From IMG/VR virus record IMGVR_UViG_3300020470_001313, positions 1-64,000 of that record: DNA of 64,000 bases; one strand, 5' to 3'. The notes under the pieces were generated by a model, which was not told where the DNA came from, did not search any database, and saw only the letters and a program-made list of their open reading frames with translations. The stretch is from a virus. This document shows positions 1-1,832 of this stretch, one piece after another (positions within the stretch are counted from its first letter, which is position 1; each line of letters starts with the position of its first letter). The position numbers were made by a program, and so were the translations under genes.

Positions 1-641
1 GCACTAAACAGGGCACCACCAAACATACCCGCCACACCTGCCATGTGGAATGGATGCATGAGGATATTATGTTCCGCCTGGAAGACAAACATAAAGTTGA
101 ACGTGCCTGAAATGCCGAGAGGCATACCGTCACTGAATGATCCTTGTCCGAAAGGATAGACCAAGAAGACAGCGAAGGCTGCTGATACTGGTGCGGAGTA
201 AGCAACACAGATCCAAGGGCGCATGCCTAAACGATACGATAGTTCCCACTGTCTACCCATGTATGCTGAGATACCTATGAGGAAGTGGAAAATTACTAAC
301 TGGTATGGACCTCCGTTATACAACCATTCATCAATGGTTGCTGCTTCCCAGATGGGATAGAAGTGCATGCCTATAGCATTAGATGATGGAACTACAGCAC
401 CAGAGATGATGTTGTTGCCATACATTAATGAACCAGCAACTGGCTCACGGATCCCGTCAATATCAACAGGAGGTGCAGCAATGAATGCTACGATGAAACA
501 AGTGGCGGCTGTCAACAAGCAAGGAATCATTAATACTCCAAACCAACCTACGTATAGTCTGTTGTTTGTACTTGTTACCCAGTCACAAAACTCGCTCCAA
601 TTCGTTAGCAGACCTTGCTCTCTACGTTGGAGAGTTGTCAT
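1..641 (-). CDS. psbA: Photosystem II D1 protein, N-terminal part (runs off window start)
   Basis: Manual translation from ATG at 641: [40 protein letters not shown]...HFYPIWEA...[14 protein letters not shown]...[27 protein letters not shown]. Confidence 0.99.
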
Positions 642-669
642 TTAAAAAAAGAGTGCGATTTGTACTTGT

Positions 670-712
670 ATGATAAGACATTATGACCCCGTGGTCTTGG
701 TTAGGGGGTATG
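670..712 (-). ncRNA. PhotoRC-II-like cis-regulatory RNA (H-type pseudoknot) in psbA leader
   Basis: Interleaved pairings ACCCC(709-705)/GGGGT(690-686) and AAGAC(698-694)/GTCTT(679-675) just upstream of phage psbA, where the PhotoRC-II motif is known to occur; family assignment from memory. Confidence 0.65.
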
Positions 713-844
713 TAAAAGGTGGTGATACATATGCTGCTTATACTCAGCCCCATTGTATCAGCGGGGGGACTTATTTGTGTTCAGAACTACCCAGCCACGC
801 ATAAATGCGATTCATCGGTTCGGTCTTGCCCTTGCCACCCAAGT

Positions 845-878
845 TATTTATCATAACAAAACTTCACAAATTTGTCAA
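845..878 (-). promoter_or_regulatory. Dual psbA promoter: sigma70 TTGACA-17-TATGAT overlapped with T4-type late TAAATA
   Basis: -35 at 878-873, -10 at 855-850, late box at 850-845. Confidence 0.8.
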
Positions 879-893
879 GAGAATAAATAAAAA

Positions 894-979
894 CTCTGAG
901 GGTAGGAGTTGAACCTACAAGTCCCGCCAGGAACAATAGATAAACGGTCTATCGCGTTTGCCAGTTTCGCCACCTCAGA
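894..979 (-). tRNA. Atypical tRNA, anticodon GTT (Asn), long variable arm, no encoded CCA
   Basis: TCTGAGG/CCTCAGA acceptor stem, D-arm GCG-AAACTGGCAAA-CGC, anticodon stem ATAGA/TCTAT with loop CCGTTTA, variable arm GTTCC-TGGC-GGGAC, T-arm GTAGG-TTCAACT-CCTAC, discriminator G. Confidence 0.85.
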
Positions 980-987
980 TTGAGGCA

Positions 988-1785
988 CTATGAAAGTGCC
1001 GAGATCATGCGAGTGATACCAATTCCTCCTCCAGAACGAGGGAAGAAGTCAAAGGAAAGGAAGTCTTCTAGTTCTTTCTCTACTCTACTTCTTCCAAACA
1101 AATCAATGATGAGTTGTGCATACTGTCCATCAGAGATGGTATAGAATGTGTCTCTCATTTGATCCTTGTCAGTGCTACGTTCAGCACTACCAATGGTTTC
1201 CATACCACCTAGGATCACATCAATCTTTTTACTAGTGCCATCATCATTCCTTGCCATGTTCCAGAAGGGTGATGTCCACTCAGGGAAGTCAGTAATCATA
1301 CCACGTCCAATCTTTTTCTCATGGTCATGGTCTAACTCTTTACAGTTAAACTTGTTAGTCCAGTCATCATAGGTCATGATGTCTTCTTTATCTAATGGTA
1401 GACCTAACCATTCACATAGTTCCCACTCCATGTCTTGAAGTTCTTTGACACCACCCTTCATTTCAAATTCAAACATGGGAAAGATGGTCTCGTGTCTACC
1501 TGGTACAGGGTTTGGTTCTGCTCTGTATGAAGTTGAGACACAGAAAAACCCTTCCGCTGAAGGGTTGGAAAGTAATTCATATTCTAACCACATCTGACCT
1601 GTTTGAGGGAGTGGCCAGATATTATCACCGTAATTATATGTTGCTACTGTCTCTGGGTCTTCACAAGCAGCAAGTATACTCAGTCTATTCTGAGTGTGAA
1701 CCTCTAGGTAATTTTTAGACAAAAAAAATGACCTCAATAGGTCAACAGTCTCACTATATTTACGAGGATCAATCAGACTTGTCAT
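988..1785 (-). CDS. Class IIb aminoacyl-tRNA synthetase-like protein (Asn/Asp/Lys family), catalytic core only
   Basis: Motif 1 LRSFF..YLEVHT, LPQTGQMWLE, motif 2 YRAEPNPVPGRH..FPMFEFE, ETIGSAER, motif 3 PRSGGGIGITRMI; 265 aa with no N-terminal OB anticodon-binding domain. Confidence 0.85.
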   Translation of the reverse strand: MTSLIDPRKYSETVDLLRSFFLSKNYLEVHTQNRLSILAACEDPETVATYNYGDNIWPLPQTGQMWLEYELLSNPSAEGFFCVSTSYRAEPNPVPGRHETIFPMFEFEMKGGVKELQDMEWELCEWLGLPLDKEDIMTYDDWTNKFNCKELDHDHEKKIGRGMITDFPEWTSPFWNMARNDDGTSKKIDVILGGMETIGSAERSTDKDQMRDTFYTISDGQYAQLIIDLFGRSRVEKELEDFLSFDFFPRSGGGIGITRMISALS

Positions 1786-1832
1786 TAATTTTTTGCAAAA
1801 CTAATCTATTTAGCAAGTCCGACTGTCTTTAT

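Follow-up and report, generated by a model that had tools for sequence, protein, structure and literature searches.

A cyanophage cassette of a core-only class IIb synthetase-like enzyme and a chimeric tRNA(GUU), and its possible relation to pyrimidine synthesis

The phage locus and its chimeric tRNA

The window, by which we mean the whole 64,000-nucleotide stretch of DNA that was analysed (positions 1 to 64,000 of IMG/VR record IMGVR_UViG_3300020470_001313), comes from a T4-like cyanomyovirus. The phage record is 150.6 kb long and 85% complete, and its first 2 kb hold the gene for a protein resembling a truncated aminoacyl-tRNA synthetase, followed by the only tRNA of the record, which carries the anticodon GUU (Table 1). 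Judged by protein identity, the nearest isolates are the Prochlorococcus phages P-SSM7 (91%) and P-SSM2 and P-SSM5 (both about 80%). The earlier note on this DNA had the tRNA beginning 8 nt past the stop codon on the same strand, and this is confirmed.

Table 1. Positions of the features discussed, in window coordinates.
Feature	Position	Strand	Remarks
Truncated synthetase-like ORF, 265 aa	988..1785	-	Class IIb aminoacyl-tRNA-synthetase catalytic core
Chimeric tRNA(GUU), 86 nt	894..979	-	Rfam tRNA, 46.9 bits
Spacer from stop codon to tRNA position 1, 8 nt	980..987	-	Read from the sequence
CTAAATA, T4-type late-promoter-like box	1807..1813	-	21 nt upstream of the enzyme ATG; putative function
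psbA	3-641	-	Cyanomyovirus gene
Near-consensus sigma-70-type promoter	850-878	-	TTGACA, 17 nt, TG-TATGAT; 11/12 matches

The short spacer implies co-transcription of the two genes, in which case RNase P would cleave just behind the ORF. Two contigs of relatives from marine RNA libraries span the ORF/tRNA junction; DNA carry-over is possible in both and their ends are unreadable, and we take them as a weak pointer to co-transcription. The late box that the earlier note saw ahead of the enzyme gene is indeed present as CTAAATA, but across the window the motif is no more frequent than expected by chance, which leaves its role as a late promoter putative. Sixteen of its 17 copies in the window lie on the minus (coding) strand. 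The sigma-70-type promoter follows the tRNA immediately and lies ahead of psbA, whose leader (654-722, minus strand) gives a sub-threshold match to PhotoRC-II (22.7 bits; gathering score 39).

The tRNA combines two identities. Its body is that of a tRNA-Leu, with the D arm and long variable arm of that type, and the D arm is nearly identical to that of a phage tRNA-Leu(UAA) on the same contig; A73 and a Leu anticodon are, however, both missing. Of the marks of a tRNA-Asn, GUU, G73 and U1-A72 are present, whereas a short variable loop, U33 and a purine at position 37 are not: the anticodon loop in the window reads CCGUUUA, with C33 and U37. No CCA is encoded. The long variable arm is a feature shared with the remoulded or chimeric long-arm tRNAs, such as bacterial tRNA-Leu and the allo-tRNAs, but where tRNA-Leu has A73 and G1-C72 the phage tRNA has G73, U1-A72 and a GUU anticodon followed by U37.

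Comparison of 42 distinct tRNA sequences of 83-107 nt from related loci gave a cloverleaf that is 99.9% paired, with compensatory changes at 20 of the 24 pairs. Against this background of change U1-A72, G73 and the stretch G34 U35 U36 U37 are invariant, so that the Asn marks to which the earlier note drew attention hold throughout the set, and the six remaining acceptor pairs covary while U1-A72 and G73 stay fixed. Positions 32, 33 and 38 vary, C33 being found in the window and in several clades, and the variable arm, long as described, ranges from 13 to 37 nt. CCA is encoded in the tRNAs of deeper clades and not in those of the cyanophages; in the deeper marine phage clades (L079-L082, L085, L089-L091 and L114) the tRNAs are 86-107 nt long with CCA encoded, the longest having arms of up to about 37 nt. 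The tRNA is thus a genuine, selected product of remoulding, a phage tRNA-Leu bearing bacterial tRNA-Asn identity marks and an unusual U37. Its invariant positions are those read by AspRS or AsnRS and by GatCAB, so that charging by the host is the simplest view, probably through enzymes that recognise the anticodon, G73 and U1-A72. The last of these is named, in the title of one paper, as mediating tRNA-dependent asparagine synthesis (PMC1635274).

The tight linkage of enzyme and tRNA that had been noticed in this one sequence proved to be general among related phages. When homologs were counted, the pair was found in 86 of the 88 marine phage loci for which downstream sequence was available (among them contigs that had been mis-binned in marine MAGs), and it persists down to 59% protein identity. 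The spacer between stop codon and tRNA is 7-20 nt in most related loci; the sole long insertion, of about 90 nt with an internal repeat of the TATTAG/TACTAA type, lies between enzyme stop and tRNA at L073:2436-2525. Since the genomic neighbourhood of the pair differs among P-SSM7, P-SSM2 and the window, the pair moves as a unit. The enzyme tree groups the tRNA-linked sequences and sets them apart from a cellular clade with good support; it implies about four changes of state.

Outside these phages the linkage disappears. Neither the huge phages, whose homologs are 45-48% identical, nor the cellular genomes scanned with a covariance model of the chimeric tRNA contain a long-arm GUU tRNA, whether near the homolog or elsewhere; the model found ordinary tRNA-Leu and tRNA-Ser in both groups, tRNA-Leu giving the top matches in the cellular genomes. 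In a 735-kb huge phage the homolog stands between a fragment of a family B DNA polymerase, upstream, and a gene (L004:3940-5502) whose 520-aa product has a RimK-like ATP-grasp domain.

A class IIb core with an asparagine-type pocket

The 265-aa protein carries class II motifs 1, 2 and 3, and a Pfam tRNA-synt_2 match covers residues 11-264. Its sequence starts with the motif-1 helix, and alignments with AsnRS chains are confined to their catalytic part, the N-terminal OB-fold anticodon-binding domain being absent; both domain and fold comparison thus uphold the first description of the protein as a class IIb core lacking that domain. In other respects it is hard to place among named families. 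It matches PHROG 29758, of uncharacterised function, and reaches none of the curated NCBIfam cut-offs, the top score being 24.6 bits against a required 353. The PADLOC library of defence systems gave no match, the ESM Atlas returned only viral clusters labelled ‘putative tRNA ligase’, and a literature search found no paper on such an enzyme or on a synthetase-like enzyme of pyrimidine metabolism.

Fold comparison placed AsnRS structures nearest, followed by archaeal AspRS (score about 25), archaeal asparagine synthetase A (23.1-23.7), EpmA (about 23) and LysRS (about 23). A profile search of the PDB ranked the families in like order, with E-values of 1.4e-14 for AsnRS, 8e-14 for archaeal AspRS, 1.5e-6 for AS-AR and about 4e-5 for EpmA. 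The catalytic domains of human (8H53), Brugia (2XTI) and P. horikoshii (1X54) AsnRS, the nearest in fold, are nevertheless merely 21-22% identical to the phage enzyme, which scores 20.3 bits on the AsnRS equivalog TIGR00457 where 342.6 are needed. The enzyme differs from AsnRS further in having no anticodon-binding domain, in belonging to a family that coexists with true AsnRS, and in its genomic context, which is that of pyrimidine synthesis.

With AS-AR (3P8T/3REU) and AsnA the phage enzyme shares a core-only class II fold. As measured by profile and fold scores, the similarity to AS-AR is weak in sequence, the E-value cited above applying to part of the length; the NF005055 profile gives 16.1 bits against a cut-off of 389, and the AsnA family TIGR00669 (cut-off 292.8 bits) gave no match in the NCBIfam scan of the phage enzyme. 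Nor is the family distributed as an asparagine synthetase would be, and its neighbours are pyrD, pyrE and pyrF. The NF005055 profile itself found no match in four archaeal MAGs, in 81 genomes of one phylum or in any control. For EpmA/GenX, the EF-P beta-lysine ligase, the scores again fall below the cut-offs (15 bits against 286.9 for TIGR00462, and 19.1 against 264 for NF006828); the phage enzyme has neither a Lys-type pocket nor an EF-P context.

The pocket was compared in a family profile alignment with Brugia and human AsnRS and P. kodakarensis AspRS as references. The signature QTGQ-x-x-L-E, SYRAE and a Glu closing motif 2 is AsnRS-like; the corresponding residues of AspRS are Lys-Gln and Asp. 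In terms of the residues that we take, from the structural literature on AsnRS and AspRS, to define recognition of asparagine, the Asn-type features are present (Leu-Glu after QxxQ, and Glu rather than Asp at the end of motif 2), while the Asp-type features (a Lys that follows the second Gln of QSPQ by three residues, and Asp ending motif 2) are absent, the family having Leu67 and Glu106. A pocket of this kind makes asparagine, or an amide resembling it, the likely ligand. The ATP-binding arginines of motifs 2 and 3 and the acidic metal ligands are kept across the family, which argues that the ATP chemistry has been retained. To judge from its residues, then, the enzyme remains capable of adenylation and has an Asn-like pocket, and it constitutes a separate family within class IIb.

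Cellular relatives and pyrimidine genes

A profile search with the family found 788 clusters at 50% identity, and a scan of reference genomes gave 384 matches. The main holders are Saccharibacteria and other CPR bacteria, Rickettsiales, Midichloriaceae, Dependentiae, Saprospiraceae, Chitinophagales, Weeksellaceae and an Actinobacillus. These cellular homologs share 55-62% identity with the phage protein, and many of them are encoded on long chromosomal contigs. As noted, no long-arm tRNA(GUU) accompanies them, and in cells the enzyme must therefore work without one. In nine loci of the CPR clade (L101, L104-L106, L127, L133, L140, L150 and L154) the enzyme gene lies in conserved synteny between dnaX and the gene for Dus, the tRNA-dihydrouridine synthase.

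Clustering of flanking ORFs revealed which genes recur beside the enzyme in cells: those for OMP decarboxylase, for orotate phosphoribosyltransferase (often fused to the decarboxylase) and for dihydroorotate dehydrogenase. In 19 of the 28 cellular loci from outside the CPR, pyrF, pyrE, a fused pyrE-pyrF or pyrD is found within 3 kb, often in the same operon, and one CPR genome has an ORF of the size of a fused pyrE-pyrF 1.5 kb from the enzyme gene. In two representative proteins the domains are fused: P0122 consists of PyrD (residues 5-307) followed by the enzyme domain (375-633), and P0151 of the enzyme domain (37-324) followed by PyrF (349-561).

The distribution of the preceding pathway steps is complementary. 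PyrB exceeded the cut-off in none of 16 enzyme-bearing genomes, which come from several phyla and include genomes of 4-8 Mb, and in all of 14 controls. In a sample of 91 genomes from one order, PyrB was found in 79, and all three enzyme-bearing genomes fell among the 12 that lack it (hypergeometric p about 0.002); PyrF is kept in every one of the 12. Pooling these data, PyrB is present in 0/18 enzyme-bearing genomes against 79/88 relatives and 14/14 controls. An E. coli-type dihydroorotase was likewise absent from all 16 enzyme-bearing genomes, and the other type from all nine small genomes. Taken together, pyrimidine operons, fusions and missing PyrB and dihydroorotase are what is classically seen when one or more steps before PyrD have been taken over by a non-homologous enzyme.

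The enzyme cannot be the sole way to live without PyrB, since nine of the PyrB-less genomes in the sampled order have no enzyme either. In the order of G210, five genomes of 4.5-7.8 Mb (G232, G267, G280, G292 and G304) have no PyrB at E<=1e-55 and no enzyme homolog, and carry an ORF of the size of a fused PyrE-PyrF like that of enzyme-bearing lineages; these may hold another substitute or a divergent PyrB.

Within phages the evidence concerns pyrE. The gene scored above the cut-off in the enzyme-carrying phages P-SSM7, P-SSM2 and P-SSM5 and in one 179-kb UViG that is 100% complete, and in a fifth enzyme-carrying record it is cut by the contig end; all the complete enzyme-carrying records that were tested thus have pyrE. 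It was not found in the window's own phage record; in P-SSM7 it lies 17 kb beyond the enzyme gene, on the side that is missing from this record. A published listing reports pyrE in P-SSM2 (PMC1079782), and in a table of gene clusters from 16 cyanomyoviruses orotate phosphoribosyltransferase and a ‘tRNA ligase’ are both confined to one and the same pair of genomes (PMC3037559), a coincidence with a chance of 1 in 120.

A proposed function and its alternatives

Our account of the reaction, the substrate, the enzyme that charges the tRNA and the reason for the linkage is one that we infer from these patterns. On balance we lean towards a tRNA-independent, ATP-dependent ligase that supplies dihydroorotate or a precursor of it, carried by the phage as an auxiliary metabolic gene. 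Such an enzyme would feed dihydroorotate or its immediate precursor into de novo pyrimidine synthesis, replacing aspartate carbamoyltransferase and, in small genomes, dihydroorotase too; given the fusion to PyrD and the absence of PyrB and often of PyrC, dihydroorotate is the product that asks for the fewest assumptions. The reaction might resemble that of AsnA: a carboxyl group on a substrate derived from Asx would be adenylated and then attacked by a nitrogen, closing or building the ureide ring. Candidate substrates are N-carbamoyl-aspartate, which would be cyclised through its beta-carboxyl, and asparagine that has taken up CO2 on its amino group. The phage enzyme would work with the phage pyrE and the host pyrD and pyrF to provide more pyrimidine nucleotides for DNA replication, and the tRNA would be co-transcribed with it and travel in the same cassette. 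PyrB and PyrC, which fill the place in the pathway, just before PyrD, that we assign to this enzyme, are unrelated to it in fold and chemistry; the enzyme would consume ATP and might do without carbamoyl phosphate.

Several observations tell against a dihydroorotate product. An AsnRS-like pocket normally puts the alpha-carboxyl by the ATP, and the alpha-carboxyl is free in dihydroorotate. In the Saccharibacteria-class sample none of six enzyme-bearing genomes has PyrD at E<=1e-25 and PyrF is missing in two of five, so that dihydroorotate would serve no purpose there in the absence of divergent partners. In Rickettsiales the enzyme gene does have divergent DHO_dh-like neighbours. At two Rickettsiales-like loci (L092:5341-6165 and L115:3836-4630) the adjoining ORF matches DHO_dh weakly, over the C-terminal third only (E 1e-8 to 5e-11), and may be a divergent dihydroorotate dehydrogenase that falls below standard thresholds. 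The near-absolute linkage in phages, kept while the flanking genes change, is not explained by a purely metabolic role.

The linkage would be accounted for if the tRNA assisted the pyrimidine enzyme. A non-discriminating AspRS of the host and GatCAB would make asparagine on the phage tRNA, and the enzyme would use that asparagine either freed or still bound, the tRNA serving as a substrate carrier in a host poor in free asparagine; the host may lack an AsnRS. This would unite the pyrimidine connection with the conserved pairing, the invariant G34, U35, U36 and G73 are positions read by AspRS and AsnRS, and U37 and the C33 variants suggest a tRNA that is not optimised for decoding; the role in tRNA-dependent asparagine synthesis that the title cited above gives to U1-A72 (PMC1635274) fits as well. 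Yet the cellular enzymes need no such tRNA, and the group esterified to the tRNA would be the alpha-carboxyl, which dihydroorotate has free, so that an extra release step is needed. We consider this assisted route unlikely, and we know of no precedent for it. Its specific form, in which tRNA-borne asparagine, CO2 and ATP would yield dihydroorotate and one cassette would bypass carbamoyl-phosphate synthetase, aspartate carbamoyltransferase and dihydroorotase, we likewise hold to be doubtful.

The earlier note had proposed a self-contained pair, in which a core-only ligase reads the acceptor end (U1-A72, G73) or the long arm and attaches Asn or Asp to the tRNA, to serve either translation or non-ribosomal transfer. 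What stands of this is the conserved linkage to a chimeric tRNA, which holds in changing contexts and down to the lowest identities; the fixity of U1-A72 and G73 amid covarying acceptor pairs, the AsnRS-like structure and pocket, and the fact that the phage has no other tRNA all suit it too. The charging role fares worse. Close relatives in many cells have no such tRNA and sit inside pyrimidine operons or fusions, so that many homologs, in cells and in huge phages alike, show none of the linkage on which the proposal had been staked, though the marine phage loci do. An invariant GUUU would moreover be superfluous for an enzyme blind to the anticodon and suggests readers of the anticodon instead, and the known core-only class IIb paralogs AsnA, AS-AR and EpmA do not charge tRNA. 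A dedicated aminoacylation pair is for these reasons improbable.

Coexistence with other enzymes of asparagine metabolism bears on what remains. Among the Bacteroidota and Actinobacillus genomes tested, the enzyme occurs together with AsnRS in five of five, with AsnB in three and with AsnA in two, and it is found as well in genomes that have GatB and no AsnRS. Replacement of AsnRS by the enzyme was rejected, as the Bacteroidota and Actinobacillus genomes hold both. In the Saccharibacteria-class sample the enzyme is present in six genomes and an AsnRS-like gene in 16, with an overlap of zero where only 0.8 was expected. A plain ammonia-dependent asparagine synthetase of the AsnA/AS-AR kind, serving an Asn-rich phage proteome encoded by AT-rich DNA with tRNA-Asn as a thematic partner, corresponds to the other suggestion of the earlier note, an Asp-ammonia ligase feeding Asn supply, and is chemically the closer of the two, but we regard it as very unlikely: AsnA and/or AsnB stand alongside the enzyme in four of the five tested genomes and AsnRS in all of them, free asparagine cannot enter proteins in the genomes without AsnRS, the scores fall far below the cut-offs of the AsnA and AS-A families, and the pyr operons, the fusions and the absence of PyrB would go unexplained.

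If the enzyme does make dihydroorotate or a precursor, as we favour, it would represent an unrecognised and widespread alternative to the first steps of pyrimidine synthesis, built on the fold of a tRNA synthetase and spread over free-living Bacteroidota, Rickettsiales-like and Dependentiae symbionts, CPR bacteria, giant and huge viruses and the cyanophages of the ocean. In the tRNA, a tRNA-Leu body has been rebuilt in nature with Asn identity, and the fixed linkage of this tRNA to the enzyme gene raises a possible tie between a tRNA and nucleotide metabolism that is directly testable. Should the proposal be true, marine phages would possess a new kind of auxiliary metabolic gene, and metabolic reconstructions in which these organisms now count as pyrimidine auxotrophs would change.
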